Shown here: in pieces, positions 25,999-64,000 of the stretch | How positions within the stretch are numbered: the stretch's first letter is position 1 | Layout: each line of letters starts with the position of its first letter | Assembly (NCBI GenBank): GCA_004431415.1 | Contig: QPMI01000508.1 | Location: 109,429-173,428, forward strand | DNA from: Cyanophora paradoxa CCMP329 | Lineage: Eukaryota; Plantae; Glaucophyta | Reading direction: 5' to 3' | DNA length: 64,000 nucleotides | Translations under genes and position numbers: made by a program | Notes under the pieces: generated by a model | Databases searched by the model: none | Told to the model about the DNA's origin: nothing | Seen by the model: the letters and a program-made list of their open reading frames with translations, nothing else

Positions 25999-26018
25999 AA
26001 GGGACGGTGTGGGCGGGA

Positions 26019-26393: not shown

Positions 26394-26531
26394 CGATGCG
26401 AACGAAATATAATGAAGAGAAGCGGCATCCAATAAATGATATAAAATATGTTTGGTGTGAAGCAGCGAGGAAAGAGAAGAAAGACGATATCGATAAATCT
26501 AGAAGAGCGGGCTCGAGACTGGCCGGCGCCC

Positions 26532-28189: not shown

Positions 28190-28349
28190 GGGCGTGGGGG
28201 CGAGGCGGGGCGGGACGCCTGGGAGGAGCTCGTCGACATCAAAGTCAGGGACCTCAATGGAGAAAGGCGGCGGCGGCGGCGGCGCCCTGCCCCCGGCGAG
28301 GAGGCGCGGCCCGGCGTCCGGAAGGCCCGAGCCTTGAGCACCAGCGGCG

Positions 28350-29050: not shown

Positions 29051-29186
29051 GGGGCGGGCTGCAGGGAAGGAGTTCTTGGCAGGGAGATGGGAGGGGAGAG
29101 GGGCTGAGAAGGCGCGCAGCCTGCGGGGCGGGCGCCGGGAGTGGCCGCTGGGGGGAGGCGGCGGCCGCGCCTGAGCGCGAGGGGGC

Positions 29187-30431: not shown

Positions 30432-30533
30432 GGTAGCGCTAGCTGAAGCGCGAGTTGTGCGGCGAGGTGCCGGAGCGGGACCGGCGGGACGCTCGCGCCT
30501 GACATGCTGTGCGTGTCCCTGTGCATGGGGCTG

Positions 30534-30700
30534 AACGCGAAATTGAGGCGGCTCGGGCGCCGCGCTTGCGTGCGAAAACGCGTATGGGTACGCTAGTACA
30601 AGTTGACTACCTGAATCAAATTCGGAACTTGAAGTTTAGACTGCGAAACGGGGCTCGAACAGCCGGCTCGCTAACCTCAGTAAATCTACTTTACTACCCA
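30534..30700 (-). repeat. Ngaro repeat A1 (167 bp)
   Basis: Matches 26019-26185. Confidence 0.95.
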
Positions 30701-30741
30701 CGGATTTTTCGATATCTGGACCGGAGATCTATATTCATTAG

Positions 30742-31326
30742 ATGCTTGTCGCCGCGCATTTGCATGCTGGGGAAGATGTCGATGCCGACGGCGAGGAGAT
30801 AGAAGCCAGCGCCAGCGCCGCCGCTGCTATGGCCATCGATATCGTTGCCCGTCTGGTCACGGGCGTGCTCGCGCTGGCGGAGGGGCCCGCGGCCGCGGAT
30901 GGCCATGGCCGCTTTGACCGCAGCATCGAGCTCTGCCGCCCCTTCTTCGACGGCCGCGCCGGCCGCTGCTGGCCGTGGCGGCGCGCGCATACCGCAGCTG
31001 CGCATACGGACCTCATCGCGCTCCAGGGGCGCATGCACGAGGGGGCGCGCCTGCTCGAGGAGGAGGCCGCGCGGTTCAGGCAGCTGACGAGCGCGCAAGA
31101 CGAGCTCCGCGCAGCGGGGCAGCAGCACGTCTTCTCCCTGTGGAGGGCGGAAGAGCTCGTGGACTTCGCGGACGCCTTCGAAGCCGTCGTCTCGGGCGTC
31201 CTGGCCCCCGAGGCCGCCGCCGGCGTCGACCCCCGCCTCAAGGACGCCGCCTTCGCCGCCGTCGCCGCCAGGTGCGCATATGCATGCGCGTGCGGGCGGA
31301 ATTTATCTACTCGCATATATAATTGA
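30742..31326 (+). pseudogene. Paralog fragment of the F-box gene at 14649 (F-box part absent)
   Basis: ELVDFADAFEAVVSGVLAPEAAAGVDPRLKDAAFAAVAARC is nearly identical to the end of ORF 14649..15518. Confidence 0.6.
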
Positions 31327-34398: not shown

Positions 34399-35736
34399 TC
34401 AGTGCTTAAGCTGAGCAGGAGCTGAAGAGGGGCGCACGGTGCAGAGGTCGAAGAGCTCGTGCTTGACCTCCGCGATGCGCCGCGCGGGGTAGAGGACCTG
34501 CGCCTGCCGTGAGGCCGAGGGCCGGTGGGCGCAGCAAAGCGGAGATCCAGATCTAGAGCGCACCGGCAGCGGCCCCACGGGGTTGCTGCGCATCGCGGCG
34601 ACCTCCACGTCCCACACCCAGATGAAGCCTTGACCCGCCGCTGCGGCGCGGATCCGATCCCCCTGCGCACGCCAATCAATCGCCGCACGTGCTCCGAGCG
34701 GCTGAGGGCGCGCGCGCGCCTCTGGAGCGAGGCGGGCGCATGCGAGCGCCGGGTAGCCGGAGGCGTGCGCGACGAGGAGCGCCCCCTCGCAGCCGTGGTC
34801 GACGTCCATGATGGACGCGCCCATCGCGGAGCCGTCGGCCCCGTCGCTCGAGAGGAGCGCGAAGCGGGGGCACTTCCGGCCGGCCTGACGCCGTTTCGGT
34901 TTGGAAAGCTACAGCTGAAAGGTTAGAGAACCTGCTCGAACCTCATCCAGAACCATGTCGACGCTGAACTCCTCAAAGCTACACTCGAGATGCTCGACCT
35001 CCTGCACTGGGCTCAAGGCCGTCGACGCACGGTAGACTGAAATTTGCTCTCGGAAGCCTTCGCCCAAGGTTACGCACAAGAAGCGCTCAAAGTCGCCGTT
35101 CTGCGGTGGGATAACGGTGAGCTGCGACAGCCGCAGTAATTCTATAAGTCGATTGATTGAGGCTGCCAACCTGCGCGCGGTATGCAGCAATCACTCGGTT
35201 GATGCCCTCGAGTACTGTTTCCGATGCCGCGCCTGCAGCTCTAGATCTCTCGTCTGAGATGAAAACCCGATACGTGCCAATCGAAGATTGCTGTGGGTCT
35301 TTCACATATAGTGCCATAACAGAATCGTCCTGCAGCAGGAATCAGACTCGCGCGATTGAAAGAGCAATAAGAGCACGCGGGTACCACGAACTCCGCTCGG
35401 TCGACCTCGGCCCCGGCTCTGCTCTTCCGGAAGTCCGCCAGGCGGATGCCGACTCGGAGATCCCACAGCTGCCACTCCCCCTTCATGCCGAGAACGGCGC
35501 GCTCCCCGTTCTGCGATGAGAGCACAGCGTCATGCCGCGCTCGCACTGCACGGAGTCTGGATGCGCACCGGGGAGATGCTGGCCCTGAGGCTCCCGATCG
35601 GAGCCGGCATCGAGATCTCAGCGCGCCACTCGGTCTTTGCCGAGTCGAAGTCGAGCATCTCGAGGGTTCGGCAACTGCGTTCCGGGCAAGCGCATCTCGC
35701 CAGGGCCCTCCGCCCCTGCGAAACCGCTTGCACGTG
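34399..35736 (-). pseudogene. Possible degenerate WD40-like host gene abutting or interrupted by the viral insertion
   Basis: Fragments GEWQLWDLRVG and GFIWVWDVEV in broken minus-strand frames; a reading frame runs up to the junction. Confidence 0.3.
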
Positions 35737-35831
35737 ACACATATTGAAAAACGAATTTAAATCCCTCGTTCATCTCGATCGCTTCGCGATCTCGATTCAC
35801 TCTGGATTTAAATTCGTTTTTCAATATGTGT
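35737..35831. other. Left terminal 95-nt hairpin/palindrome
   Basis: 28-bp perfect stem (35737-35764 with 35804-35831), symmetric mismatch region, inner stem gatcgc-ttc-gcgatc centred at 35784. Confidence 0.9.
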
Positions 35832-36158
35832 TAATTTAATACTAAAATACATATTTATCGATTAATTTCTTTAACTTTTTATGCAAACTTTGTATAAATT
35901 AATGCAAACTTCGTATTAAAAATGATAAACGCGTTTAATTTAATGCATATTCACGATTGATTCAATCGATATTATATCGATAAATTATGTTCTTTGTCGA
36001 TTACATATATAACTTCGATTGATTAACATTAAACTACTTAAAGAACGATATAATCGCGATTAATTCGCATAAATTCGCATAAATTCGCATAAACTCGATA
36101 TATCTCATCGGTATTGAAGTAGACCACCGCCCATTTTGTATCGGAAAACGCAAAAACT

Positions 36159-36410
36159 GTCACAGAGTTGCATTTTGTCCAATTAAACAATCGATGGAAT
36201 TGCGGATTTACATTTTTGCACCGAAAAAGTGTCACAGAGTTGCATTATGTCCAATTAAACAATCGATCAGATTGCGGGATTTTCTATTGGAATATATCGG
36301 AACTGCATCACGTCCAATTAAACAATCGATGGAATTGCGGATTTACATTTTTGCACCGAAAAAGTGTCACAGAGTTGCATCATGTCCAATTAAACAATCG
36401 ATGGAATTGC
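36159..36410 (+). repeat. Four tandem 63-72-bp repeats inside the TIR (mirrored at 63327-63578)
   Basis: Core gtccaattaaacaatcgat at about 36177, 36249, 36312 and 36384. Confidence 0.85.
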
Positions 36411-36523
36411 ATATGTTCTATAAAACAGAATAATTGAGATCAAGTGTGACAGGTAGTATTCAAATGATATTCAGTAAGAGATAGTTTTGTTTTTGAGAAA
36501 GTCAGTAAGAGGGGTGGAATGTC

Positions 36524-36960
36524 TGTGACGCCTGTGACGGCTGTGACGCCTGTTTTCAGAAGTCTGTCATTTTTGAAAATTTTAAAAAGTTTGAAAGTAG
36601 GTGTCACAGGCGTCACAGGCGTCACACTCAATTAACTTAGGTGTCACAGCGAAATTGCAGACCATTTCCAGTAAGGCAACTTCGCATTATCAAAAAGGTT
36701 GATTAATGGATATTGTTTTGTAGGTGTCAGAGGTGTCACAAGACGGATTTCAGTAAGACAAGAATATATTTTTGAATATCTCAGTAAGAGAGATAGATTC
36801 CATTTTTAATTGGGTGTGACGCCTGTGACGGCTGTGACGGCTGTTTTAAGAAGTCTGTCATTTTTGAAAATTTTAGAAAGTTTGAAAGTAGGCGTCACAG
36901 GCGTCACAGGCGTCACAGTCAATTAAAGAGGCGTCACAGTCAATTAAATAGGTGTCACAC
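36524..36960. promoter_or_regulatory. Two iteron/AT-core cassettes (putative origins) in the left TIR; mirrored at 62777-63213
   Basis: (TGTGACGSC)3, AT-rich spacer, (GGYGTCACA)3 at 36524-36627 and 36814-36918, with extra half-sites. Confidence 0.55.
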
Positions 36961-37161
36961 CCGATTATCTGACCATTTTCAGTAAGACCATCTGAAATTC
37001 TGAATTTCTCAGTGTCAACTAACTCGGAAATCGCAATACTCTATGTTTCTCCGATTTCTCCAACCCTGAAAACACACCTGTTATTCTGTCATCTATCTCA
37101 TGAGATACTCTCGTTTCGCCAAAAATTGACAAACGATTTCCCATCATGCTGTAAAGGAAAC

Positions 37162-37428
37162 ATGCCGATTAACCAGCAATATCACAATTTCCATGGGACT
37201 TACATCTTGATTGTGAAAAGAATACAAGATCATTATGAGATCTTTCAAGAGATGGGATTGCGAATTACAAGGAGATCAACCCTTTGTAGATTCTTGAAAA
37301 AGAATGGTGCTAAATGGGATAAGACAATTCGCCGATGGTATACAGAAGATCGAAAGAGTCCCATTCTTAATATTTTCGAGACAGATGGGGAGTTCTTCTA
37401 TCAGGATCGGTTTAATCATTACCAATAG
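37162..37428 (+). CDS. Small viral protein with a DUF5710-like motif
   Basis: FLKKNGAKWDKTIRRWY matches the K..GA.WD...K.WY motif; ATG 37162 lies just outside the TIR. Confidence 0.5.
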   Translation: MPINQQYHNFHGTYILIVKRIQDHYEIFQEMGLRITRRSTLCRFLKKNGAKWDKTIRRWYTEDRKSPILNIFETDGEFFYQDRFNHYQ

Positions 37429-39437: not shown

Positions 39438-40808
39438 ATGGATATTACTTCGACCCTCCAACGTCTTTCTCTGAAAGAAGCTCTAACAACCCCGGAAGAA
39501 GCCAAGGCGTTCTTCCTGGACAACTCTCTCATGCTTGGTCTTGAATCCAAGTCGAAGCCAGTTCTTGTTGTTGTGAACCCAAGCAACACTTTCGAGAATA
39601 ATGCTGGAAATCGCATTTCGTTCAAGCTCCCTCGCTACAATTTCTGTGGAAAACTCGAACTTGCGTTTGACCTTCCAGCTGTCACTTTTGCTGGTGATAC
39701 CGACCTTGTTCGCAATGGATACGTTCGCCCAGTTGGTGCTCTTGTCTCTCGACTTGAAATCACCTATGGATCTTACACTTTCCATGTGCCTTCTGATTTC
39801 CTTGCTCATTTCCCTCTTATCTATTACAGTGAGGATCAACTCGCCAAGAAGAAGCGTTCAATGGGTATGGTTCATGGTATCCCTGCCCATGGAACCAACC
39901 GACTTGGTGGTTCATTCTTTGTTGAAATCCCCGTCCCATGGCTAAACCACTACCTACCTCTTGGTGCTCTCTCAGGAGAAATGGTGGTAACTGTCTGGTT
40001 CAAGGATGCTGGAAAGGGTTATGTTGAGACTTCTTATGGTGGTCGTGCTCTTCCTGTTGTTGGTGGAACAGCTGCTGATAAGACAGAGGATGATGGACTT
40101 GGTGCTACTGCTAATGCTACTCTTGCCCATGTTGGTCAACAGATCACCACTTTCACCATCTCTGGAACAACCCCCGAAATTAAAGTCACTTCTCCTCGTC
40201 TTTACATGCATGCTATTAATGTTTCTGATGAACTGTTTGCTACTGTCATTGAGAAGGTGAAGACCACTGGTATGGCTATTCCTGCTCTGGATATTGGTTT
40301 CGTAGACAGTGTCAATTTTGCTGCAAAAGGCAATGCTCAGCCAAATCGTATTAACCTGTCACAGATCTCTGGTCTTGTCTATGGTCTTCTTGTTTCAGTT
40401 CGTGATGCCGCAGGTATTGATGGTTTCAATGGTTCCCACAGTGTTCTGAAAACGTATGCTAACTCAAAAGACATTACTTTCACTGTTGAAATTAATGGTC
40501 AACGTCTCTATGCTACTGAGCCCATCCCTCTCCTCAAAGGTGCCGAATTAATTGCGGATGCCTTCAAGTGCTCAAATATGGACAAGGTTGCAGACAAATA
40601 TGTCCTCAGTGGTCTACCATTCTGTGTTGATGGAGAGAAAGCGATTCGCAACATTGCCCAGTCTGGCTATGTTGATCTCACGAACTCCTCCTCCTCTTTC
40701 CTCACTCTATACATGCCTTCTGACCAGACAATCACAGTTAATGTTCGTGCTCTCATGCACAGTTTCATTATTGTTGACAAAGATGGTCTTCGTCGCATTA
40801 ATCTGTAA
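39438..40808 (+). CDS. Major capsid protein (double jelly-roll)
   Basis: 456 aa, beta-rich; ISFKLPR....GKLELAFDLP, LVSRLEITYG, FVEIPVPW...LPLGALSGEMVVTVWF; lies between penton and packaging ATPase. Confidence 0.8.
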   Translation: MDITSTLQRLSLKEALTTPEEAKAFFLDNSLMLGLESKSKPVLVVVNPSNTFENNAGNRISFKLPRYNFCGKLELAFDLPAVTFAGDTDLVRNGYVRPVGALVSRLEITYGSYTFHVPSDFLAHFPLIYYSEDQLAKKKRSMGMVHGIPAHGTNRLGGSFFVEIPVPWLNHYLPLGALSGEMVVTVWFKDAGKGYVETSYGGRALPVVGGTAADKTEDDGLGATANATLAHVGQQITTFTISGTTPEIKVTSPRLYMHAINVSDELFATVIEKVKTTGMAIPALDIGFVDSVNFAAKGNAQPNRINLSQISGLVYGLLVSVRDAAGIDGFNGSHSVLKTYANSKDITFTVEINGQRLYATEPIPLLKGAELIADAFKCSNMDKVADKYVLSGLPFCVDGEKAIRNIAQSGYVDLTNSSSSFLTLYMPSDQTITVNVRALMHSFIIVDKDGLRRINL

Positions 40809-40870: not shown

Positions 40871-41653
40871 ATGAACGATTTAGAAGAGTTTAATGCAGGC
40901 GAAATGATAACCCCACCATTTCGTGCTCTTTTCATAGGAAAGTCTGCAACAGGCAAGTCAGAATGTGTGAAATATTGGTTGAAACAGCTGCATGATGCGA
41001 AAAAGATTGATACTGTTCTTGTTGTGAGTGGGACGTCCTTCAATCATTTCTGGGATGCAGTTGCAACATTGCAACTCGGGAAATGGGATGCTGCTTACAT
41101 TTCCAAATTACTGGATGAAAGGCAGGAGAAAATCGAAAAAGGGGAACCTGTGAATCAAATGTGTATTGTCCTTGATGATTTAATAGATAATGAGTTAATA
41201 GACCTAACTCGTGATAAAATAATTGGCTCTGTGTATTCGCGCGGCCGACACTCGGCAGTATCCTGTATCTGCATAACTCAGAAATTGCGTAAGGTTTCTT
41301 CAACAATTCGAGTAAATTCGGATTATGCTGTGTTCCTGAGTGCTGCAAATCGCAAAGAACTCGAAGCCATTGAAGAGGAATATAATATCATGCGAAACAA
41401 GGACGATTTCTATAAGATGTTTGAGGAGTATGTGCACTCTTACCAATATATTGTGTGGTCTTCTGCAAATTATTCGGTGAACTATTATGTTGATAAAGCG
41501 GATCTGGTCAAAGATTTCGCATTTCCTCGGTTCCACAGGAAGCCCAAAAAGAAAGAGGACGAACTACCACCTCCACAGAAAGAGGAAGCCCCCAAAGAGG
41601 TCAAGAGTGGTGTTCATTCGAATAAACTGATGCGATATAAGAGAGGTTTGTAA
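40871..41653 (+). CDS. A32-like (FtsK/HerA) DNA packaging ATPase
   Basis: Walker A GKSATGKS, Walker B IVLDD, RGRH..VSCICITQ, IRVNSDY. Confidence 0.92.
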   Translation: MNDLEEFNAGEMITPPFRALFIGKSATGKSECVKYWLKQLHDAKKIDTVLVVSGTSFNHFWDAVATLQLGKWDAAYISKLLDERQEKIEKGEPVNQMCIVLDDLIDNELIDLTRDKIIGSVYSRGRHSAVSCICITQKLRKVSSTIRVNSDYAVFLSAANRKELEAIEEEYNIMRNKDDFYKMFEEYVHSYQYIVWSSANYSVNYYVDKADLVKDFAFPRFHRKPKKKEDELPPPQKEEAPKEVKSGVHSNKLMRYKRGL

Positions 41654-43299: not shown

Positions 43300-45663
43300 A
43301 TGAACGCTGCCGCCAAGAAATCCCTGAAACGCCTTGTTGATTGGCTTCGTGAAGACGATGTCCTGTCTGAGAATCTCGTAATTCCTGTTGATCCTGATAC
43401 CAAAAGACCGCTTTTCGCTCATAAAGACGGATCCTGGACTTGGGATAAATTCGATGAAGCCCTGAAATCCGGTAAATATACTGCTTGGGGCATTCTTGCT
43501 CGTAATATCATGGTTATTGACTTCGACCAAGAGGAGGATTTCGCCAAATTCGAGGAGCAATTCCCTGATGATTTCGGTGGTGTTAATCCACTTGCTAAAA
43601 CCAAAAAAGGATATCATGCTTATTTCGCTCGACCTGCTGAATTCGACACCATTAAGATCTGGGATAAAGCAGGTGCATTCAAAGGAAACCCCAAGATCGA
43701 CTGCAAAACGATTGCATCCACTGGGACTGCTGGGGTAATTAATGTTTGTCCAAGTCCCAACAAAACATGGATCAGAGAGCCATGGGCATCTGAGTGTGAG
43801 TTAAATGAACCTACTGCTGAGTTGCAAAAGTGGATTGTTGACAACTACGAATTCCCCAAAGGTGCACATTCTTATTTTGAGAGGTGCGCTGAGGAGAATT
43901 TGCAGAAACATATTCTTTCTAAACTGGAAGAATTCGGTTTCATCTTGCCCACAATCATCAATGAGACCAAGATGGGATACAATTTCACTGCTGAGAACAA
44001 AGGTCTGATCTGTCCCTGCTGCAAGGGAAGCCATGACTCGAACAATTGGTATATTGTTCAAGGGAAGGAGAAGGACAAATATATTGTTTCGAGTTACAGT
44101 GCAAACTGCAAAAAGCGAAGCATCACAGTTCGTGTGAAGGAAGAGACAGATGTGAAGATCGAAAATCTGATTGATCGGTCTGCTGGATCTGATGGTGCCC
44201 ATTATGATGTTGCACAGGTTGCCTATCTTGTTCTGCAAGACAAATACAAGTATTCCAACAAGACCTGGTTCAAGTTCAATGATGTATGTGGGATTTGGGA
44301 GATGGATGAAACTGGGAAGCGAATCTTTCTCTGTTTGAGCTGCAAGGTCTGTCCAGTTTATCTTCAACGTTCTGTTCAACTCGCACAGAGAGCACTTCGT
44401 GATGAAGAGAACCGCAATTCCTTGGAGGAAAGGTCAAAGATTCTGCTGGGAATTGCTAAGAGCCTCAAACAGACTACATACAGAACTGCACTTATGTCTG
44501 ATCTTTCAGTTCTGTTCAGTGACAAGACCTTTTTCGAGAGACTTGATACTGTTCCCAACATCATTGGATTTACAAATGGTGTGTTTGACCTGAACTCCAT
44601 GACTTTTCGACAGGGACTCCCAGATGATATGGTGAGTAAGACTGTTGGCTACGATTACACCACAGAAATTGACCAAGAGAAAGTTGCGAAGATTAAATCC
44701 ATCTATGCAGATATTATCGAATCTGATGAAAACCGCGAATTTATGATGGGATTAATTGCCTATGCCCTGAGTGGTTTGACAGAAAATCAGAGATACACTT
44801 GCTGGACTGGAATTGGAGCAAATGGGAAATCACTGCTCCAAGAGTTGGTGAAAGACACATTTGGTGAGTATTATGGGTCACTGGACATGACATATTGGAC
44901 TAAACCCAAGAAGAGTTCGTCAGAGGCTTCCCCAGAACTCGCTTGCATTCTTGGTAAACGAATTGTTTTCAGTAATGAAGCAGAAGATGGTGATATGCTT
45001 CAACTGAACAAAATCAAACAGGTTACTGGTGGGAATGAGATGAAGGTTCGAGCTCTTTTCAAAGATCTTGTTACATTCATTCCCATGTTCCAGTTGTTCT
45101 TGTCCACAAATGACAACTTGGGAATCAGTAAACCAGATGCAGCAATTCAAAGGCGAATTATCTACTACCGATTCGAAAATGTCTTCAAGGTCGATCCTCA
45201 GCCTGGTGAGAAGAAAGCAGACACCACTCTCATGCGCCTAATGAAGAATGATGACGATTATAAAATGGCGCATATGTCCATTCTCCTGGAAATGTGGAGA
45301 ACCCATTCTCTCAATGAATTCGTCACCAAACCACCCCAGTCCATTGTTGATCAAGGTGTTGAATATTTCAATGAGAATGACAAGATTGGAGAATGGATTC
45401 GTGAGAGTTATGAACTCACCAAGAGTCAAGGGGATTTCGCCACAAGTGAGTCCATTATCAGTCACTTTAAGATGGATCACATGGGCAAATCTGATGAGAA
45501 AATCACAGAATGCACTATCTTGAAGAGACTTCGCGAAGTCTTTAATGTGAAGGCTGAGAGAAAGCGAGTCAATGGTGTTCTTGCTCGTGGCTACTTTGGG
45601 ATCAAAAAGAAGCATAGTCGCAAGTTGGTGGATGACAGTGATGTTGAAGGTGGGGATGAGTAA
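43300..45663 (+). CDS. Primase (Prim-Pol-like) fused to a D5-like SF3 helicase
   Basis: N-terminal VIDFD and T..GYHAYF primase motifs; CPCC...H Zn finger; IGFTNGVFDL (D5_N); Walker A GIGANGKS, Walker B FSNE, motif C LSTN. Confidence 0.9.
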   Translation: MNAAAKKSLKRLVDWLREDDVLSENLVIPVDPDTKRPLFAHKDGSWTWDKFDEALKSGKYTAWGILARNIMVIDFDQEEDFAKFEEQFPDDFGGVNPLAKTKKGYHAYFARPAEFDTIKIWDKAGAFKGNPKIDCKTIASTGTAGVINVCPSPNKTWIREPWASECELNEPTAELQKWIVDNYEFPKGAHSYFERCAEENLQKHILSKLEEFGFILPTIINETKMGYNFTAENKGLICPCCKGSHDSNNWYIVQGKEKDKYIVSSYSANCKKRSITVRVKEETDVKIENLIDRSAGSDGAHYDVAQVAYLVLQDKYKYSNKTWFKFNDVCGIWEMDETGKRIFLCLSCKVCPVYLQRSVQLAQRALRDEENRNSLEERSKILLGIAKSLKQTTYRTALMSDLSVLFSDKTFFERLDTVPNIIGFTNGVFDLNSMTFRQGLPDDMVSKTVGYDYTTEIDQEKVAKIKSIYADIIESDENREFMMGLIAYALSGLTENQRYTCWTGIGANGKSLLQELVKDTFGEYYGSLDMTYWTKPKKSSSEASPELACILGKRIVFSNEAEDGDMLQLNKIKQVTGGNEMKVRALFKDLVTFIPMFQLFLSTNDNLGISKPDAAIQRRIIYYRFENVFKVDPQPGEKKADTTLMRLMKNDDDYKMAHMSILLEMWRTHSLNEFVTKPPQSIVDQGVEYFNENDKIGEWIRESYELTKSQGDFATSESIISHFKMDHMGKSDEKITECTILKRLREVFNVKAERKRVNGVLARGYFGIKKKHSRKLVDDSDVEGGDE

Positions 45664-45731: not shown

Positions 45732-45866
45732 GTGTGACAGCTGTGACACCTTTTTAATTGAGTGTGACGCCTGTGACGCCTGTGACGCCTATTTTCAAAC
45801 TTTTTAAAATTTCAAAAATCTACAAACCTCTGAAAACAGGTGTCACAGGCGTCACAGGCGTCACAC
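45732..45866. promoter_or_regulatory. Internal iteron/AT-core cassette (putative replication origin) just downstream of the primase-helicase
   Basis: (tgtgacgcc)3, tattttcaaactttttaaaatttcaaaaa..., (ggygtcaca)3; same design as the TIR cassettes. Confidence 0.6.
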
Positions 45867-46017
45867 CCAATTAACCACAGACTCCCCCCTGTGGGTCGAT
45901 GACTGTTTCGATTCTTAATCGGACAATATAAAAACGTATCGAAAATCGTTGTGTTGTGACAAAAATTGACTGGCGATTTAAGGGATCGTTGCGTATTTCA
46001 CTTGACTAAGACAGAAA

Positions 46018-46265: not shown

Positions 46266-49200
46266 ATGCCCCGCCAATCAAATAGAATCATCAAAGAAAA
46301 GAAAAACGAAATACTCGGTCTTTTAGGAACCCTTTTAGTTACTGGTGATATTACAGAATTCGAATATGATCGCCAGGCAGCAATCCTGGATAGGAGACCA
46401 AGATTATCTCAACTCACAGAAATTACTAATCGCCTCTATGATCGTTTTGAGAAGATGGAGGAATTCAGGGATGAAGGTTTAAGGTTGGGAACAATTGAAC
46501 CCGAGATTGAAGATGGGGAAGCAATGAACAAAGCATACTCTTGGTTAACCTATCGAGCAAGAGGGAGGTTATCCAAGATGGGATTGAATTCTTGGAGAGA
46601 ATTGCACCCACTCTACCTCAGAGACTCAGACAGAAACTCCAAGACCTGAGAGCAATTAAGACTCGGTTGACCTTCATTTGTAAGTTCACCAAAGTGAGTG
46701 ATCCAAGGGTGTGGATCACCAAGTTCATTTATAGTGATTACTTTGTCATCACAAGATCTCGAAATATTGATGTTGAACTGCGAAATGCACTTCAAGCAAT
46801 GCAGGAACAGATGATGCAGGTGGACAGTTACAGACTGGATCGCATCGAGATGCTGAGAGTGGTTATAATGTCTTATGCTCCTGTGGGTGGTTGCTTCTTC
46901 TCAACACCTGAGTGGATTGGATTAAAGAGAGCAACTGTGAATGTCAAGAATATTGATGGTCAAGACTGCTTCAAGTATGCAATCTTGGCTTACCTGCACC
47001 GAAAGGACATCAATAAACACAAGAGCAATGAACCCAGCCAGTATAGAAGATGGTTAAACGAACTCAATTTCGAAGGCATCCAGTTTCCAGTTGCCTGTGA
47101 TGCAGAAATCATTGATCGATTTGAGGAGCAGAACCCTGAACTGAGTATCAACATTTATGGTGCAGATAATCAAGCACAGTGTTTCTATCCTCTCCATCAA
47201 TCCTGCAACCCGAGGAGAAAGACCAAGATTAACCTTTTATTAATCGAAAACGAAGAGGATGATAGAGGACATTATATCACCATTATGTCTCTGAGTCGAC
47301 TCCTGAAAACCACCTTTGATAAAGCCCATGATGGTCGCATTTATTATTGTGAGACCTGCCTGTCTCGTTTCAGAACTCAGGAGAAGCTGGACATTCACTT
47401 AGAAGCCAATCGCTGCATTGATTGGAGGAGAGCAAAGGTAAATGCCCGAAATCTGGAAGTCACATTGCATTTGGGCTTCAACACCTTCGCAAAACTGTGT
47501 GGCTTCCCACTATCTGCTATGTAAAAATGGATAGTCACTCGGTTCCAATTGATGAGAACCGCAGTAAAAGAGCGGTCAAATCGGTTTCTTTAACAGTTGT
47601 GATGGGGATGAGGTGATCTCTCATTATTTCGAGGATCAGATCCACTTGGTGCTCTGTTTACCACTCTCACAGAGATCAGACCCCAAGTAATCCGCACTCT
47701 ATTCACCAATATTCCAATGCACCCACTCACAGAAGAGCAGAAAGCACAATACAAGATCACTAAACACTGTTATATCTGTGCTGAACGATTTACCCATGAG
47801 AATTTCCCAGTAAGAGACCATTGTCATCAATCAGGAGCTTTTATTGGAAAAGCATGCCGAAACTGCAACCTCCACAGGAGAATCTCAAAGCAAACGAAAG
47901 TAGCAATTGTGGTGGATCACATGGATGAATGTGGACACGAAATATTCCGCAAAATTGCACAGCAAGATGATAAACTTCGTGTTGAGATTCTGAGCAAGAA
48001 TTTCGATCAATACCTCTCTCTGCAATGGGGCATGTGGAAATTCATAGATGCTTCGCACTTCATGGACTTCCAGGCAGTGGATTCTGGTGATCTTATGAGT
48101 AAATTCCAGACTTTCCGAGAATTGGCGTTTTCCCAATATGGATTGGATCCTGCCCACTATGTTTCGGCTCCTGGATTATCCTGGGATGCAATGCTCATTT
48201 ATACCAGAGCAAAGATCGAGCAGATCAGTGATGTAGGGCAATACGAATTCATTGAGAGAGCAATTCGAGGTGGGTTTGCTACAATGCCTACTCGATATGC
48301 AAAGGTGGAAAACCCAGATGACCATATAGTTCTCTTGGATGCAAATAATCTGTATGGTTTTGCTCTCAGTCAAGAACTGCCCATTGGAGATTTTCGATGG
48401 GAAGATGTCTCAGAGGCACTTAAAGAGACCCAAGGACGAAGTGCCTTTATTGAAGTTGACCTGGAATACCCACAAACTCTCACAGATCATTACGATTTTC
48501 CACTTGTAGTTAATAAAGAACATGTCACCACCGAAATGCTGGGTGGGTATCAAAGAAAGTTACTGGATATCACAGGTGAGAAGATAAGCAAAGACCCCAA
48601 ACTCACTGCAACATTCTCACCAAAAATAACTATGTGATTTCCCAACCTCTCTTGATCTATCTTGTGAGCAAAGGTATTATAATCACGAAGGTTCACAGGG
48701 TTCTCTCATTTGCAACCTCTGCATTCATGAAGAGTTATATTGATCTAAATACGAAACTGAGGCGCCAATCTATGTCCAGATTCGAGAGTGACTTCTTTAA
48801 ATTAATGAACAATGCAATCTATGGTAAATGCCTCGAATCATGCAGGGGTCGCTCTGTGGTAAAGATTGCAAACAGTGAGAAACTTTGCAAGAAATATGCT
48901 GCAAGTCCACTCATCAAGGCAACCAATGTATTAAACGAAAATGCTGTTGCCTTTGAGATGTATTCCAAGCATGTTCACTTAGATAAACCTGTTGCAATTG
49001 GTGCTTTTGTGCTGGATTTCGCGAAACTCCACAATAGCAGGTTCTTTTATGATGTGGTGAGGAGAACTTGGGAAACAGCAGAGCTACTATTCCATGATAC
49101 AGATTCTTTCTGTCTCCTGCTGCATACCAATGATCTAAATAATGAGATGAAGCGAATTGCTGGACACCTGGATTGCAGTAATTATGATCCCACCCACCCT

Positions 49201-49542
49201 CTCTTTGATAGGAGCAATCGTTTGATTCCAGGTAAATATAAAAACGAGTTTCCAAATGCAAAGATTGTGGAGTATGTAGGTCTGAGATCGAAACTCTATG
49301 CTTTCAGAACTGAGACCTTTGATAAAATAAAGATGTCTGGGACTTCCTCCAAAGAGGTTCACTTTGATGATTTCAAGAGATGCCTGTTTGAAGGCATCAC
49401 CAAAACAGTAGCAGTAGTAAACAAGCGAAGGCAAGACCACAACCTATATGATTTGGAGAGCAGAAGGGTGGCTCTAAACCAACTCGATAGCAAAAGGAAG
49501 ATATTAGACGATGGAATTCACAGCATTCCATTTGGGCTCTAA
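46266..49542 (+). CDS. polB: Protein-primed-type family B DNA polymerase (Maverick/adintovirus-like), split by five single-base frameshifts, exonuclease motifs degenerate
   Basis: CFKYAIL, FEEQNPELSINIY, RDHCHQSG...ACRNCNL, YGLDPAHYVSAPGLSWDAML, IRGG, motif A DANNLYG, motif B KLMNNAIYGK, motif C DTDS, GLRSKLY. Confidence 0.88.
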
Positions 49543-49707: not shown

Positions 49708-51126
49708 ATGAGAGATAAGGTAAAGATGCCTTCTACACAAATAGGATTGAGACAACCACCCAGAATTGTAAGAAAAGAGGCAATTGAAGATCGAGGGAAT
49801 ATCCTGCCCATCACAGTTCCAGTGGAGGAGAAGAGCAGTCGAATATTGAAAAGATCAGAGATGGTCAAGCAATTAATCCCAGAGACCCTCCCAGCTGAGA
49901 CAGCACCAAAAGAGTCGAAGATTGCTAAGAAGTTCTATGATCCCAGGACAGGCTACAAGGGATTTACTGCAATGAGACAGGAACTACCAGAGGAGAACTA
50001 CAAGAAGATGAGAGAGTGGTATGATAAGCAGGAGGTCGTCCAGATTAATGCACCCACCCTATCTCGAAAGAGAGATCCCATGATTCCAATAAGGCAACCC
50101 CTTGATACCTATGTGATTGATCTGCTCTTCTTTCCTGCATACAAAAAGCAGAATGATGGTTATGATACATTTATGAGTGCAATGGAGTCAACCCTGAGAA
50201 CAGGGTTCATAATTCCAATGAGAGACAAGAGTGCTCTTACTACACTTGCAGCATTCAAGCAACTTGAACAGAGAGTCCCCAGACCAATTGTTCGCATTCA
50301 GAGTGACAGTGGAAGCGAATTTACCAATGTGTTGTTCACAGATTATTTGGGAACAAAATTCATTGAGCATCAACTAAGTGATGTTGCAGATCACAGAACC
50401 CAAGGTCGAATTGAAGCCTTTAACAGACAGATCAAGAGATTGATCACAAACTACTGCATTGCAAATAATACTGCACGATTTTTTGATGTGTTGGGTGATA
50501 TTGAGTATAATTATAATAATACCATTCACTCTGCAACCAAGAGAAAACCAGCAGAGACCACAGAAGCCCACTACAAAGAGATTGTGAATATGGAGGATCA
50601 GAGATTCAAGAAATCGATTGAGTATCTTGATGCCCTGAAACCTGGAATGTTTGTGAGAGTGAAAGTTGAAAAGAATCCATTTGCAAAGCAAGGGGTTAAT
50701 TGGTCTCGAATTGTTTATAGTGTGGAGGGCAGAGAGGGCTTCAAGTTCAGAATCAGAAGTCCCAGTGGTGAGATAGTTGATGGTAGATTCGCTTTTCATG
50801 AACTGCTGCCCATTAAAGGTGTTGAGTATCATGAAACTCCCACAGTGGATGCTCTTGAACAGGCAAAGGAGGAAGCCAGGGTTGATTCAGCAATCAGAAA
50901 GGAGGGCATAGAAAAAGCAAGTGAAATACCAAAAGAACCCCTCACAGAAGCAAGAGCACAAAAGAAGGGTAGAGTAGAGAAAGAATTAAAGAAGTTGACC
51001 ATAGCAGGAACCCAGAAATTATCAGAAGTCAACAGTCAGAGGTGGTATAATGACTTTTCAACCACCAAAGAAACATATACTGCACCCCAAACTCGATTCA
51101 ATCTACGAAGAGGGCAGAGGAAATAG
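49708..51126 (+). CDS. Retroviral-like (rve) DDE integrase of Polinton type
   Basis: VIDLL (D), IQSDSGSEF (D), GRIEAFNRQIK (E), YNNTIHSAT...P, SH3-like G..VRV...NWS; no chromodomain seen. Confidence 0.92.
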   Translation: MRDKVKMPSTQIGLRQPPRIVRKEAIEDRGNILPITVPVEEKSSRILKRSEMVKQLIPETLPAETAPKESKIAKKFYDPRTGYKGFTAMRQELPEENYKKMREWYDKQEVVQINAPTLSRKRDPMIPIRQPLDTYVIDLLFFPAYKKQNDGYDTFMSAMESTLRTGFIIPMRDKSALTTLAAFKQLEQRVPRPIVRIQSDSGSEFTNVLFTDYLGTKFIEHQLSDVADHRTQGRIEAFNRQIKRLITNYCIANNTARFFDVLGDIEYNYNNTIHSATKRKPAETTEAHYKEIVNMEDQRFKKSIEYLDALKPGMFVRVKVEKNPFAKQGVNWSRIVYSVEGREGFKFRIRSPSGEIVDGRFAFHELLPIKGVEYHETPTVDALEQAKEEARVDSAIRKEGIEKASEIPKEPLTEARAQKKGRVEKELKKLTIAGTQKLSEVNSQRWYNDFSTTKETYTAPQTRFNLRRGQRK

Positions 51127-51530: not shown

Positions 51531-51663
51531 TGAAGTTTCGGTGAAGTTTCGGTGAAGTTTCGGTGAAGTTTCGGTGAAGTTTCGGTGAAGTTTCGGAAAA
51601 GTTTCGGTGAAGTTTCGGTGAAGTTTCGGTGAAGTTTCGGTGGAGTTTCGGTGAAGTTTCGGT
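51531..51663 (+). repeat. 12 x 11-bp tandem repeat (TGAAGTTTCGG)
   Basis: Read directly; two variant units. Confidence 0.95.
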
Positions 51664-51689
51664 CAATCGGATAATTCTATGAATCGCAA

Positions 51690-51941
51690 AATGGTTGCGC
51701 GTCATCGCAACCATCATCGCAACCATGGTTGCATCATCGCAACCATCATCGCAACCATGGTTGCATCATCGCAACCAGGTTGCGCAACCACTCAATGGGA
51801 AAAACATTGGTTGCGCAACCACTCAATCGGAAAAAAATTGGTTGCGCAACCTGGTTGCGCAACCAGCGCAACCATGGTTGCATCATGGTTGCATCATATC
51901 GCAACCATGGTTGCATCATCGCAACCAGGTTGCGCAACCAT
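51690..51941. repeat. Array of palindromic GCAACC/GGTTGC modules
   Basis: Repeated gcaaccatggttgc and ggttgcgcaacc palindromes. Confidence 0.9.
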
Positions 51942-53981: not shown

Positions 53982-56900
53982 ATGAGTTTCAATTACCCAG
54001 CAAACCTTCAAACCATTCCCTCATCAGGAAGAGGGAAGGCAGATAACAAACATGTGAATTTCGATAACTTGACAGCCAGAGGGTCAATCTCAATTGATCA
54101 CAGTGCAGATGAACCCTCAAAGACTCACCCAAGAGAGCATGCACTTTCAATAAACGAAATGGATCCCGAAAAGGAGGATGTGAGTGTTGCTTTCAGCATG
54201 GGGAATGTGAAATCGAATCAAGTAGCCCAGATTAAAGCAACCAGGAGCAGACCAAGAAAACTGAAAACCAGTGGAACCCATCCAGATATTCCAACTCGAT
54301 TCGATAGTGGTAGGTTAATATTCAATGTTCAAAATGAGAAGGGTGGGCATCAGAGTGGTTTGAGAATCTATAATGAAGGATCAAATGCAATTGCACAAAT
54401 TCCCGAAATATTACAGATAGCCCCCCATGGAGAAACCAACAAAATCGAGTTCACTAACAATGTTTATCCACGAGATATTGTGGCGAATTCGGCTTCTAAT
54501 GCGCAATTCGGTTTCCAACTACCAAGTGATACAGCAAAGAATAAGGCGTCTATCACTGTCAACAGTAGCCCCACTCAACCAGTAACAGTTCATTTACACC
54601 CAGACCTTGTCGAAATGGATAGGCACCTTTTACCTTTGGTGACAAACACCAAAGATCTTGGTATTAGAACCAGACAATGGCGAAATATCCATGGAAGCAA
54701 TGTCTATGCAAATGGAGAGAAACTTGTAAGTGAGAAGACCATAAGAGAGATCTTTGAGTATTATGGACCTGTCCCAGTTCCCTTCCCACTACCATGGGAT
54801 CCACCAGATTTAACACCCAAAAAGCAACCAGGAAGAGAATACACAGCAGATGAGACAGTTCCTTTTGGGCAACACATTGTTAGTTGGGAGCAAGTTCGCA
54901 ATAAACCTATAATTGAACCCAGAAAGCAAATTGATGAGCAATATTTACCTCCTGAAATTGATATTTTGGAGCTTGACGAATACCAATTCGTTCCAGATGA
55001 GGAGGAATACCTACCTGATGGTTTCGACCCACAAGAGTATGAATATGATCAATATGATCCCAATGAGGAAGAGTATTTACCAGATGGTTTAGATCCACAA
55101 GAGTATGAATATGAGCAGAATTATGAACCCCATGAGGAATATTTAGCAGATGGTCATGATCCACCAGCTGTTGACTATGAGCAACCTTATGAACCCCATG
55201 AAGAATTATTACCAGATGGATTTCGACCTGAGATTTGGGAATTCTTCCCAGATTGGGAGCAGATCAACAACAAACCAGCCAGATTTCCACCAGAGGATCA
55301 CAACCATGACTGGGATGAGATCTTAGGCAAACCTCAAAAGTATCCACCAGAGGATCACAGGCATGATTGGGGTGATCTGGATGGGATACCAGATAAGTTT
55401 GCAGCAAGCAACCATGAACACACCTGGGATGAGATCAATGACCAACCAGAATTCGCAAAAGTAGAGCCTCTTGCTACTCTGGGAGTTTCTCTTTACCAGA
55501 CTTGCAATGTCCCTGAAAGGATCTTTTTGAATCACCACTATGTTCATGTGGAAGGGACACTTGCAAATTCAGCTATGATAGGACCATTGCATATTAGAAC
55601 ATTACCAGGCTCTTATAATCCACCACCAGAACCAGGAGCAACCATACCAAATATCTTTGTGTCAAGCTACATGGAGGTTGACATACCCACAGATACTTTT
55701 AGAGTTCCAACAGACCCAGCAACCTACCAAAATTACAATGCAGCTATACAGGTTCATGTTGCAGATGTGAGCAGTCTGGATGGATCAAGACCAATGATAG
55801 TTTTCAGTCGAGATAAATACTCCTATATTCCCATAGTGGGAACTGCAAATGATAACTATGGGAGGGCAGAGCTTGCATGGATCAAAACAGATTATGGTGG
55901 GGTTCTCGAAGCCAATCAAAGAATGGCTGCAAAAAACATTCACAACGAAAATATATCGAGAGTGGTAACAGAAGATTATTTAGAAGATCAAGGATATATT
56001 GACGAAGGAGAACTAACGAATATTCTTTCTTTATTCGTGATTAAAAATGATACAAACCTTACAGTCACAAGTAACATTTACACCAGTAACATTTCAGCAA
56101 GTAACATTTGGACAAGTAACCTATGGGCAAGTAACCTATGGGCAGATGATATTTACACAAGTAATCTTACAGTGTATCGAAATATAACAATTGGAACACA
56201 AAATACTATACAAATACTTTATAGACCTTACTATGCTGTTACTACTGTCATTGATCCAGCCCCAATTATTCCAAATTGTATATTTGCATGGAAAGCATCA
56301 GGTCAACATGGTCAGTTGATATATTATCAAGGTCAGATATATAACAGAGTTACTACACAGATACCATATCTAACAAATTATTCGAATTGGGAAACTGTTT
56401 ATTATTATTTGAATGCAACCCTAAACAATCAAATTTCGATTGGGAAAGAATTAAACATGGCTTATAGGAATAGTGTTTCAATAGATTGGTCATTAGGTCT
56501 TACATTATTCTTTATAGGTAGGATCAATACTACAAATCCTTCTTATATGTTGAGTATAAGGGATAGTTCTTATCAAAATTGGATTGGATATGGTTGTAAA
56601 AATCAAAAGTTTGGTGTTTCACTACAAATTCAAAATGATATAGAAAATGCAACTCCTCCATTATTCGATGCATCATATATTTATAATTCGTGGAATTATT
56701 GGGATTTCACTGTTTCCTCAGAGCAAATTGTCGTAGGAATGGGTGGTATTGATATTGGAACATCATCGGGTGATTTTCTTCCACCTTCTAATTTTGCATC
56801 ATTTGGTTCTTCTGTTGCTAATGGAGATCTTGCCGAAATTATCGTTTTCAATCGTGCGTTATCTATTGAAGAAAAGAACGCGGTTAGATATTATATACAA

Positions 56901-59771
56901 TTATTGTATGGATTTCCAAATACGCAGCCCATATTGAATAATGAAGATCTTAAAATTAATTCGAGCAATATATTTATTGAAAATCTCACAGTTACCAAAA
57001 ATGCAACTCTACCACATCATCCCACTTCGAATGTTGTTTTAGATTGGTTAGCAAAACAAACACACACAAAAGCAGATATTACAGATTTCGCCCACACTCA
57101 CACAAATGATCAAATAACAGATTTCGCCCATACTCACACAAAATCGCAAATCACAGATTTCGCCCATACTCATTTATGGGAGCATATCACAAATCCTCCG
57201 TTAACCTTCCCACCTGATTCACACACTCATGATTATTCAGAGATTACAAATAGCAACCACAGGCACCCATGGAGCGAAATAGACGAACAGCCAGTTTTTG
57301 CCCAATTGAATGCAATCGGAAACGTTTTTAATGGAGTCACACTTTACCAATCGAGTAATACACCTGAAAGGCTATTTTTGAATGATCATTATGTTAGTCT
57401 CAATGGTTCATTTACAGGTCAAGACGGCACACCGATGGTGGGAACTCTTGCAGTAAGATTACCCAGGGATCCAATCGTAAATGGAGTGTATAGTGGCGAT
57501 TTTAATGTAGGAATTAATGATACTTTCCCCAGTATCTATGTCACGAATTATCACCCGGGTGAAACAGGACAAGTAGCGGATTTTTCAGCAGCGATACAAG
57601 TAAATGTAACAGATCAAAGCGCATATGATGGAGCAAGACCTAAAATAGTTTTCACAAGGGAGAAAGTTGTAAACTACCTTCCTGTTGCGGGACAACCCAC
57701 AGATGATCACGGTAAATGTGAGATTGCATGGATAAAAACGACATCAGGTGGCGCCTTAGAAGTCAATCAGAGAATGGCGGCGAAAAACTTACACAATACC
57801 ACCCTTTCCGGTGTTGTTACAGATGATTACCTTACCAATAAAGGGTATCTTACCTCAGCCGATTTAAGTAGTTACACAACAGATGCAGAATTAACGGCGG
57901 CACTTGCTAATTATCTACCTCTAACAGGTGGAACTATTACAGGAACTGTGAATGCTACCACTCTACAAATTGGTGAAACCACAATACCAAAAGGTTACGA
58001 TTTCGACCAATTAGATGTGGTTTCGACAGACAGGAGCGCAAATAATTGGAACTTAGGATGGACACCAAGAACCGGACAAACAGGATGTTATACAACACCA
58101 CAAAATGATGAAGATTGTAGCGCTTGTTTTATGCGTTGGACAGTTCCAGAAGGTATGAAATCGTTTTACATCCAGCACATGCCGTGGTATAATTGTAGAT
58201 ACTTTGATATTTACGGGCAAACTGTGAATGGATATCAACATTTCTTAAAACGAGTTAATGATTAAGGAATCCAATCAGTTAATAATGATGGAACCAATAA
58301 TACTATTTTGTTCACTTCTATCAATTGCGAATTCTACAAATATATTTATGTCCAAGGTCGAAAAGGTCGCATTCATCTCACAGGTGTTTTTGGGTGGAGC
58401 AGACAGAGAGCAACAGATAATGAATTGGGCATGATCTCTTGGGATAATGTATATAGCAAACCATCATTTTACTCAGCCGCAGACCTCCCAGGAACAGCAA
58501 CATGGCCAACAAATACATGGTTAAAATCAGTAGATGCAGTCGAGCGAATTTGGTTTGGTAATGGCGATTGCACATATATACGAGGGAGACCGAATGGTGA
58601 AGGTGTGTCAATTGAATTTAGAGACTCAGCAGATGGAGCAATTTTAAAGTCTTATAACAATGGTAACTTTTGGGTGAAAAACACTATTACAGCACCCACT
58701 ATTAATGCTACTACCAAACTCCAAATAAACGGTAATGATGTCCCAAAGTTTCACACAGCAGATAAAACAGTAGGAGGTATTGCATTTAATAGATGTTCTG
58801 AGGGTTGGACATGGGCATGGAGTTCAGCATGGGATCCATATTATAATTATGGTTCATATGTCTATAATAATCAAACGGATGATCAAACATCTACCGCTTG
58901 GATTGACTTCGATATACCCGATGGATACCACACAGGAACAGCATTTTTAACCTATTTACCTTGGACTAACTCACGAATTTTTGAAATTTGGGGAGTGAAT
59001 CGACAAGGGAATGAAGTTTTTATTACATCAGTAAATAGTTATCAACCATACAGCACATCTCCTGATGGTAACCACAGTGGTATAAATAATGTTCCAATAC
59101 ATCTTGGTAATCGATTCCTCACAATTCGGATTAGACCAAAGATTGGAAGAGTTCATATTATGGGTATTAGTTACATGAAAATTTGGGTTGGAAATAGTTA
59201 TGGCGGTCACACCGGCTATATTCATTGGAATAACGTTTATAGCAAACCCAATATCTTAACAGGAGCATTGGATCTTTGGTTTAACTCTAATGATGGATAT
59301 AATCGTATCTATTTTACGAATAATAGCACCACGTATTTTAAAGGAAGAGGAACTTATCCAATAAGATTTCGAAATGAATTAGATTCTGATATTTGTTATA
59401 TCGATCATGACGGGCGCTTGTGGATTAACAATTATCTTTATCAAGGAAGTGACATAAGATACAAAACAGATATTAAAAAGATAACCGGCGCTCTTTCAGC
59501 AATTGAGAAATTAGAAGGAGTGAGTTATAAACGAATTGGAAATGAAAAACACGGAACAAAATTAGGTTTAATTGCGCAAGATGTAGAAAAGATAATACCA
59601 GAGGTTATTAACGTGAAACAAGATGATGGCTATTTAGGTATCGAATACACGGGTTTAATTCCAGTTCTCATAGAAGCCGTTAAAGAATTATCCCAGAAAT
59701 GCAAACATTTAACGCAAACTTGTGAAAATCTCCAAAGTCAAATAGACCAAATTAAAAATGTCACAGTATAA
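53982..59771 (+). CDS. Giant fibre/receptor-binding protein with C-terminal peptidase S74 intramolecular chaperone; one in-frame TAA at 58263-58265
   Basis: Acidic repeats, H-x-H repeats, a duplicated internal domain and a LamG-like block; ORF 58308 is in frame with ORF 53982; ends SDIRYKTDI...GLIAQDVE.IIPEV...IEY..LIPVLIEAVKEL. Confidence 0.8.
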
Positions 59772-62316: not shown

Positions 62317-62718
62317 ATGAATACTCATCGAGGCTTCCATGTGATGCTGGATTACAAATTCAGAACCCAATTAGCAGTAGGAATGGAGGACTTGGAGACA
62401 ACAACCAGGTGGTTAATGCAGTTCTTGCAAACTATTATTCAAGAGCAAGGTATTCGAGTAGTTCACAAGCATTGCGAGATTTTCGATGGTGGTATTTCTC
62501 CTCCTGGTTTTGCAATGGTTCTTCTGCTGGATGAGAGCCATTGCACTGCTCATTGTTACTCAAATGAAGGTATGTTGGCGATTGATATATTCAGTTGTGG
62601 ATTAGAAGCAGAGAGGAAAACCACGAGAGTATCTCATGAGATAGATGACAGAATAACAGGTGTGTTTTCAGGGTTGGAGAAATCGGAGAAACATAGAGTA
62701 TTGCGATTTCCGAGTTAG
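62317..62718 (+). CDS. speD: S-adenosylmethionine decarboxylase proenzyme (short prokaryotic-type, pyruvoyl-dependent)
   Basis: G.HVMLD, PPGFAMVLLLDESHCTAHCY (E/S autocleavage site), AIDIFSCG. Confidence 0.85.
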   Translation: MNTHRGFHVMLDYKFRTQLAVGMEDLETTTRWLMQFLQTIIQEQGIRVVHKHCEIFDGGISPPGFAMVLLLDESHCTAHCYSNEGMLAIDIFSCGLEAERKTTRVSHEIDDRITGVFSGLEKSEKHRVLRFPS

Positions 62719-64000
62719 TTGACACTGAGAAATTCAGAATTTCAGATGGTCTTACTGAAAATGGTCAGATAATCGGGTGTGACACCTATTTAATTGACTG
62801 TGACGCCTCTTTAATTGACTGTGACGCCTGTGACGCCTGTGACGCCTACTTTCAAACTTTCTAAAATTTTCAAAAATGACAGACTTCTTAAAACAGCCGT
62901 CACAGCCGTCACAGGCGTCACACCCAATTAAAAATGGAATCTATCTCTCTTACTGAGATATTCAAAAATATATTCTTGTCTTACTGAAATCCGTCTTGTG
63001 ACACCTCTGACACCTACAAAACAATATCCATTAATCAACCTTTTTGATAATGCGAAGTTGCCTTACTGGAAATGGTCTGCAATTTCGCTGTGACACCTAA
63101 GTTAATTGAGTGTGACGCCTGTGACGCCTGTGACACCTACTTTCAAACTTTTTAAAATTTTCAAAAATGACAGACTTCTGAAAACAGGCGTCACAGCCGT
63201 CACAGGCGTCACAGACATTCCACCCCTCTTACTGACTTTCTCAAAAACAAAACTATCTCTTACTGAATATCATTTGAATACTACCTGTCACACTTGATCT
63301 CAATTATTCTGTTTTATAGAACATATGCAATTCCATCGATTGTTTAATTGGACATGATGCAACTCTGTGACACTTTTTCGGTGCAAAAATGTAAATCCGC
63401 AATTCCATCGATTGTTTAATTGGACGTGATGCAGTTCCGATATATTCCAATAGAAAATCCCGCAATCTGATCGATTGTTTAATTGGACATAATGCAACTC
63501 TGTGACACTTTTTCGGTGCAAAAATGTAAATCCGCAATTCCATCGATTGTTTAATTGGACAAAATGCAACTCTGTGACAGTTTTTGCGTTTTCCGATACA
63601 AAATGGGCGGTGGTCTACTTCAATACCGATGAGATATATCGAGTTTATGCGAATTTATGCGAATTTATGCGAATTAATCGCGATTATATCGTTCTTTAAG
63701 TAGTTTAATGTTAATCAATCGAAGTTATATATGTAATCGACAAAGAACATAATTTATCGATATAATATCGATTGAATCAATCGTGAATATGCATTAAATT
63801 AAACGCGTTTATCATTTTTAATACGAAGTTTGCATTAATTTATACAAAGTTTGCATAAAAAGTTAAAGAAATTAATCGATAAATATGTATTTTAGTATTA
63901 AATTAACACATATTGAAAAACGAATTTAAATCCAGAGTGAATCGAGATCGCGAAGCGATCGAGATGAACGAGGGATTTAAATTCGTTTTTCAATATGTGT
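62623..64000 (-). repeat. Right terminal inverted repeat (1378 bp)
   Basis: Reverse complement of 35737-37114; overlaps the last 96 nt of speD. Confidence 0.95.
63906..64000 (+). other. Right terminal 95-nt hairpin with a GCGAAGC tip
   Basis: acacatattg...aaatcc pairs with ggattt...caatatgtgt; central gatcgc-gaa-gcgatc. Confidence 0.9.

Follow-up and report, generated by a model that had tools for sequence, protein, structure and literature searches.

We found that a 28,264-bp Polinton-like virus (PLV) in the genome of Cyanophora paradoxa ends in terminal hairpins that are polarised by strand: on the strand that has its 3′ end at the terminus, the fold-back has only G.A mismatches and a GCGAAGC tip, and this polarity recurs, in one orientation, at dozens of integrated ends. 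We conclude that the G.A-polarised terminal hairpin is real, selected and family-wide. The hairpin-priming model of 2026 offers a hypothesis for how linear ends may be maintained in PLVs and virophages that lack a working protein-primed polymerase. Perfect palindromes cannot reveal inversion during replication, but the mismatch-labelled strands found here can, which opens the hairpin-priming model to direct experiment. That dozens of integrated ends all have one orientation already speaks against a symmetric resolution of the flip/flop type. The G.A hairpin moreover provides a short, cheap substrate for assays with the primase-helicase and the integrase.

Both ends of the element carry the same strand-polarised fold-back

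The element spans positions 35737–64000 of the window, the whole 64,000-nt stretch of DNA analysed here, with a GC content of 40% vs 68% in the host. Its right terminal quasi-palindrome (63906–64000) carries the G.A/GAA form on the + strand with a flush, paired 3′ end, and its left counterpart (35737–35831) carries that form on the − strand, again the one whose 3′ end is terminal, and reads on the + strand as complementary C.T mismatches with a TTC loop. Each 95-nt fold-back comprises a 28-bp stem, 12 positions with 7 mismatches, a 6-bp stem and a 3-nt GAA loop. On the + strand at the right end, 28 Watson-Crick pairs are followed by a block ordered as 3 mismatches, 2 pairs, 2 mismatches, 3 pairs and 2 mismatches (A.G/G.A/A.G, then G.A/A.G, then again G.A/A.G), by 6 further Watson-Crick pairs and by the loop, with the GCGAAGC tip at 63950–63956. 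The asymmetric 39-nt centre (63934–63972, +) holds one triple and two tandem G.A blocks, the 6-bp stem and the tip; as a hairpin it is symmetric and 51% GC. Both G.A tandems are in the 5′-GA/3′-AG register, within the contexts TGAA/TGAA and CGAG/CGAG, and a pyrimidine-GA-purine context favours sheared G.A pairing. The stem is flush with the last viral base, the terminus being 5′-ACAC as read at the left junction, and its 28 bp leave a base-paired flush 3′ end with template continuing inward. In the duplex, ATCGAGAT is also a direct repeat. The mismatches label the strands, so the orientation of an end is readable here. Because both ends sit in a 100%-identical 1,378-nt terminal inverted repeat (TIR), we count them as one observation and not two. 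The first-pass annotation had described symmetric 95-nt fold-backs at both ends, with all 7 mismatches G.A on the 3′-terminal strand and C.T with a TTC loop on the other, and our analysis confirmed both points, with the same pairing at the two ends.

The G.A strand folded with −34.3 kcal/mol (z −13.75; 0 of 200 shuffles were as good) and the opposite, C.T strand with −32.9 kcal/mol (z −11.16), a gap of 1.4 kcal/mol overall and of 0.7 for the centre alone in the ViennaRNA nearest-neighbour model. As this model barely separates the strands, the case for a more stable G.A strand comes from published chemistry and not from the folding performed here. According to the available parts of two papers, stacking is very strong in sheared GA-AG tandems, with mismatches that contain C ranked lowest (PMC8163305), and GCGAAGC resists urea and nucleases, with such motifs occurring at ssDNA origins (PMC13037366).

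Upon estimating how often 7 of 7 mismatches would be G.A, or 7 of 7 C.T, we obtained probabilities of 4.7e-6 to 7e-6 from base composition, and of 3.7e-4 with the purine-rich centre as the background, the most conservative choice. A window-wide scan for fold-backs with at least 30 of 46 Watson-Crick pairs returned 45 rows, 2 of which had purely G.A mismatches, both being the termini; the other palindromic arrays of the element had 0–4 G.A among their 8–16 mismatches. We take the all-G.A, GAA-capped design as strong sequence-based evidence that the end would work as folded single-stranded DNA on one chosen strand. An assembly artefact or the neutral decay of a perfect palindrome is already largely refuted as its source. 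The right end does coincide with the window edge, and a triple-GCGAAGC motif matched 7 unrelated viral loci (L001–L007), all of them internal simple repeats and none in a long stem, but independent contigs from public runs showed 0 differences at the centre and at the left junction, and seven transversion-type mismatches of one class have a probability of 7e-6 or less under mutational decay. We give either origin next to no weight.

The element carries an intact primase-helicase and a broken pPolB

As the first-pass annotation had held, the element is a Polinton-like virus (Polisuviricotina): it has a double-jelly-roll (DJR) major capsid protein (MCP), an A32 ATPase, a length within the 14–40 kb range, TIRs and an rve integrase, together with a target-site duplication (TSD) that we infer from the left flank. 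The 456-aa MCP (39438–40808, +) had Atlas features at 0.98 to the Capsid_N/Capsid_NCLDV clusters, with low recognition, and its low-confidence model (pLDDT 38) matched DJR MCPs in Foldseek (best E 1e-6); its sequence had no match in Pfam, PHROG or PDB. The A32-like packaging ATPase lies at 40871–41653 (+; PF04665, E 2e-10). Two ORFs adjoining the MCP gene (310 and 336 aa) had no match in Pfam, PHROG or NCBIfam, and a 244-aa ORF gave no informative Atlas match. An AdoMet decarboxylase, fibre proteins and a protein in which patatin is fused with F5/8 are also encoded; according to the available text of PMC12220804, glaucophyte and rhizarian PLVs have F5/8 domains that are in some cases joined to patatin. 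The fibre ORFs of 1,427 and 487 aa (53982–59771) form one frame that is split by a single TAA, through a nonsense change or as a site of read-through, and the AdoMet decarboxylase gene (62317–62718) reaches into the right TIR, so that the left TIR carries a second copy of the gene's 3′ end on its minus strand. The combination of an intact pPolB and a maturation protease, which marks a protein-primed Polinton sensu stricto, was not found in this copy, and no protease family was detected among the 19 ORFs in the Pfam scan.

Two candidate replicases are encoded. An intact 787-aa protein combining Prim-Pol (AEP) and D5/SF3 helicase regions (43300–45663, +) matched PF09250 (just under the cutoff), PF08706, PF19263, a PHROG primase (E 3e-57) and TIGR01613. 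The Polinton-type pPolB (46266–49542, +), recognised by PF03175 and by tblastn with the intact relative P0002, an uninterrupted pPolB of 1,083 aa, is broken by at least 3 frame changes relative to P0002, near 46470–46565, 47470–47640 and about 48616. Its polymerase motifs are kept and its exonuclease motifs are absent. P0002 likewise keeps the polymerase motifs and is without all three exonuclease motifs and part of the exonuclease domain, and the exonuclease motifs are present in the 5 other pPolB homologs checked (one of them a fragment without exo I). These motifs place the pPolB in an exonuclease-less lineage. Because the PolB is broken in this copy and belongs to such a lineage, the intact primase-helicase is the likelier replicase, and the earlier suggestion that the encoded PolB extends the hairpin loses ground. 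The breaks in pPolB may reflect decay or an assembly error, and sibling copies may be intact.

An rve-type integrase with D-D-E motifs is encoded at 49708–51126 (+), with a weak match to PF00665 (E 0.002) and matches to transposase PHROGs. After its gene, 51533–51940 holds an 11-bp tandem array and, beyond it, a palindromic array of GCAACC/GGTTGC. An internal copy of the TGTGAC inverted array of the TIRs lies at 45741–45874, directly after the helicase gene and before the pPolB gene; it may be a candidate origin, or have been left behind when one replicase replaced another.

The host junction and the terminal inverted repeats

The left TIR (35737–37114, +; 1,378 nt) consists of an AT-rich tract, repeats of 72–135 nt and TGTGAC inverted arrays, and the right TIR (62623–64000, −) is 100% complementary to it. 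As the window ends at the last base of the right end, the host junction is visible at the left only. There, the element is preceded by CACGTG (35731–35736), a 6-bp palindrome that is likely the left copy of a 6-bp TSD. Seven flank bases are common to one other contig in public run X1 and to two in run X10, after which the sequences diverge; this sharing would arise by chance in 0.5–0.7%, vs 0.33 if the contig is the right junction of this copy. The contigs that share the flank are as expected of a right junction with a 6-bp TSD, which sets the terminus at 5′-ACAC, flush with the stem. A retroviral-type TG...CA terminus starting at 35735 was rejected, as at another end ACAC follows a G that has no T in front of it, and the TG at 35735 is better explained as part of the CACGTG target duplication. 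At 35912 and its mirror position in the right TIR, the window has a base that is absent from the matched contigs of 4 runs, consistent with copy-specific homogenisation of both TIRs or with contig cleaning. The host sequence itself contains repeats of 120–240 nt at 15360–33211 (D4, D10, D12, D15–D17), including a 113-nt tandem array at 28246–29170.

Integrated ends have a single orientation

We used the contigs of public runs to read the orientation of further copies of the end. The window matched 24 runs, 14 of them with half or more of the sampled words, and the comparison covered cleaned contigs, presumably assembled with k=31, from 4 runs over 35400–37300 and from 2 (X1 and X10) over 35700–35875, the latter with 16 of 111 pieces and 12 of 20 loose ends among the matches listed. 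The left flank is single-copy and continues into the element with no differences. In X1, one contig contained the whole centre with 0 differences at about 66x flank depth, and the contig over 35802–35856, which begins with the last two bases on the C.T side, crosses the inner arm and reaches the interior, was unbroken at about 50x. From these depth ratios, which are rough and could be inflated by GC bias and free copies, the same centre is present on roughly 50–66 ends in one orientation. No flip/flop isomer, strand-switch joint or end-to-end junction was present in the listed X1 and X10 contigs over 35700–35875, from which rare forms could have been cleaned away, and no variant letters were listed for this interval. 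As an inverted end or an end-to-end junction would split the 35802–35856 contig, its continuity makes near-equimolar flip/flop unlikely among integrated ends. The contigs come from probably dormant cultures and are a weak test of free DNA.

Two variants of the end were found. One, in X10, had about 10x flank depth and 6 differences over 35774–35831, and a loose end carried an inner arm with 5 changes in 25 bases. This diverged-arm variant appears to keep the centre and its polarity nearly unchanged; its link to the same subfamily is our inference. In a second variant, the centre is replaced by three GCGAAGC units on one strand, again with only purine.purine mismatches on the GAA-loop strand, and its orientation could be either; units of this kind are also found as simple repeats without relation to the element. 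Contigs of X1 and X10 also exit the element at 35835, the arm plus 4 bases, into at least 255 GC-rich bases, which may mark a further junction, a copy that is truncated or a hairpin standing alone.

These observations bear directly on classical symmetric hairpin replication, by terminal resolution as in AAV or concatemer resolution as in poxviruses, which would produce flip and flop ends, the isomers for which the first-pass annotation had proposed a test. The gross geometry is as in parvovirus and poxvirus ends, and the variant centre of ambiguous orientation would be compatible with it, but both ends of the element have one orientation, and the equal flip and flop of the poxvirus type did not appear at integrated ends in the X1 and X10 contigs. 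Furthermore, scans of the ORFs (19 in Pfam, 14 in PHROGs and 12 in NCBIfam, several of them remaining unannotated) detected no Rep/HUH protein, tyrosine recombinase or resolvase. We consider symmetric resolution very unlikely.

Possible roles of the hairpin in replication and integration

In the reading that we favour, to which we give an even chance, the G.A strand would fold back in free viral DNA as a primer or cap. The primase-helicase would copy the genome, probably from the TIR repeat arrays; without a terminal protein it could not finish linear ends, and the flush fold-back would supply a way to do so. The 3′ end would refold into the stable, nuclease-resistant G.A/GAA hairpin and would be extended or ligated, and a step that does not invert the end would then open or regenerate it, the simplest being a cut at the stem base on the 3′ side, after ...GTGT-3′. 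The integrase would join the 3′-OH of the G.A strand to host DNA, with host fill-in writing the C.T copy, a weak partner that would limit cruciform extrusion in the chromosome, ease read-through and select against inversion. A nick opposite the hairpin would lead to its inversion, so a single isomer calls for such an orientation-preserving step, and as the linear monomer has no 3′ sequence beyond the stem, priming or closure would fit better than primase loading. The first-pass annotation had placed the stable fold on exactly the strand that would prime synthesis. The flush geometry and the polarity bear this out, but a stem of 28 bp is by itself enough for either strand to fold back and the strands are only 1.4 kcal/mol apart in ViennaRNA, so priming as such does not depend on the polarity, which must have an explanation of its own. 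That small gap also weighs against fold-back priming or capping, as do the existence of an uninterrupted pPolB relative, the lack of an opening enzyme among the annotated genes and the absence of flip isomers, strand-switch joints and end-to-end junctions from the contigs listed.

The free genome might be sealed by a single-isomer hairpin telomere with sheared G.A pairs, the rve integrase opening the stem base and joining it to host DNA. Protein-primed PolB would then be dispensable and the integrated palindrome would be the unfolded telomere, an arrangement that we regard as unlikely.

A different division of labour would have an intact sibling pPolB carry out protein-primed strand displacement, the G.A hairpin only capping the displaced 3′ end against nucleases before the TIR panhandle. 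The pPolB has its polymerase motifs and a Polinton-type N-terminal region, P0002 is intact, the TIRs are perfect, and de novo priming would by default be expected to give one isomer only; a terminal ACAC dinucleotide repeat would also suit slide-back initiation. We nevertheless find protein priming improbable here, given that the gene carries at least three frame breaks although the two TIRs of this copy are 100% identical, a 3′ end that, buried in a 28-bp stem, would make a poor template for terminal-protein priming, and the association of palindromes with non-pPolB replicases in Halocafeteria (see below).

The hairpin could also be a strand-specific recognition structure, for primase or helicase loading, end recognition by the integrase or packaging, and not a primer. 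According to the available text of PMC13037366, GNA mini-hairpins mark the G4 origin, RSF1010 ssiA and N4 promoters and work on one strand only, and our hairpin has the GNA loop in common with them. The iteron-like, AT-rich and hairpin layout of the TIR, the direct repetition of ATCGAGAT in the duplex and a polarity unnecessary for priming point the same way. Unlike those sites, which are internal signals, the present hairpin is flush with the genome end and has tandem G.A blocks; the stem reaches exactly to the last viral base, so that a primase would find no 3′ template in a linear monomer, and a pure signal need not be flush. A role in recognition alone thus seems doubtful to us, but it can coexist with fold-back priming or capping.

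Relation to known systems

The closest known systems are elements of Halocafeteria seosinensis, in which terminal palindromes adjoin TSDs in virophage subtypes 1, 2, 5 and 6 as well as PLV subtype 4, preferentially together with non-pPolB replicases, and in which hairpin priming was proposed, as a hypothesis only (bioRxiv 10.64898/2026.07.28.741278; available text). The first-pass annotation knew of no hairpin mode in the group; this July 2026 preprint already proposes one. Like those elements, ours has a palindrome at the TIR tip by the host junction (on the left), an rve integrase and a non-pPolB replicase. Their palindrome is 52 nt long, and the words mismatch, flip, polarity, imperfect and GAA are absent from the preprint text, while its figures or supplements may show mismatches; here, in contrast, it measures 95 nt, with seven strand-polarised G.A mismatches, a GCGAAGC tip and a readable, fixed orientation. 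Hence, for PLVs and virophages, the idea that a terminal palindrome serves in hairpin priming is already in print as a hypothesis. A report of G.A-polarised termini, of a single isomer or of isomer counts in PLVs or virophages was not found in the literature searched, a search beyond the reach of which most subscription papers lay.

With parvovirus 3′ hairpins, and especially the left end of MVM/LuIII, the element shares the flush self-priming geometry, and the likeness is one of geometry only: no HUH NS1/Rep was detected, and the 28-kb genome, the DJR capsid, its own primase-helicase and integrase, and the identical ends set it apart. In the accessible part of PMC1185569, an asymmetric mismatch at the MVM/LuIII left end goes with asymmetric resolution and a single orientation is reported, which by analogy would be a precedent for an orientation-preserving step.

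Closer in gene content are poxviruses and asfarviruses, which have an imperfect terminal hairpin, a DJR capsid, a D5-like primase-helicase and an A32 ATPase, as the element does. In their telomeres the loop is AT-rich, contains extra-helical bases and exists in two isomeric forms, unlike the symmetric 51% GC centre found here, which occurs as one isomer in integrated copies and for which no resolvase was found. These flip-flop hairpin telomeres are treated in PMC8956199, as far as its available text goes. The long TIRs, the pPolB and rve integrase genes, the short terminal repeat and the likely 6-bp TSD are those of Polinton/Maverick elements; the broken, exonuclease-less pPolB, the lack of a detected maturation protease, the additional primase-helicase and the structured ends are not. 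In the model of Kapitonov and Jurka, Polinton/Maverick ends are reportedly protein-primed.

Relatives of the element

Searches for the hairpin pattern in metagenome contigs, and for a degenerate version of it in viral contigs, gave 0 matches. No relatives with visible ends were found through the MCP (in viral contigs, by single sequence and by alignment, and in metagenomes) or through the integrase or helicase (in viral contigs). Among 1.84 billion representatives, the MCP had only 2 relatives and the integrase 1 (P0123); the closer MCP relative is a EukProt entry, presumably from a glaucophyte alga, judging by the style of its name. Tandem (GCGAAGC)n arrays of up to about 13 units occur in unrelated viral contigs, some of them labelled as giant-virus bins.
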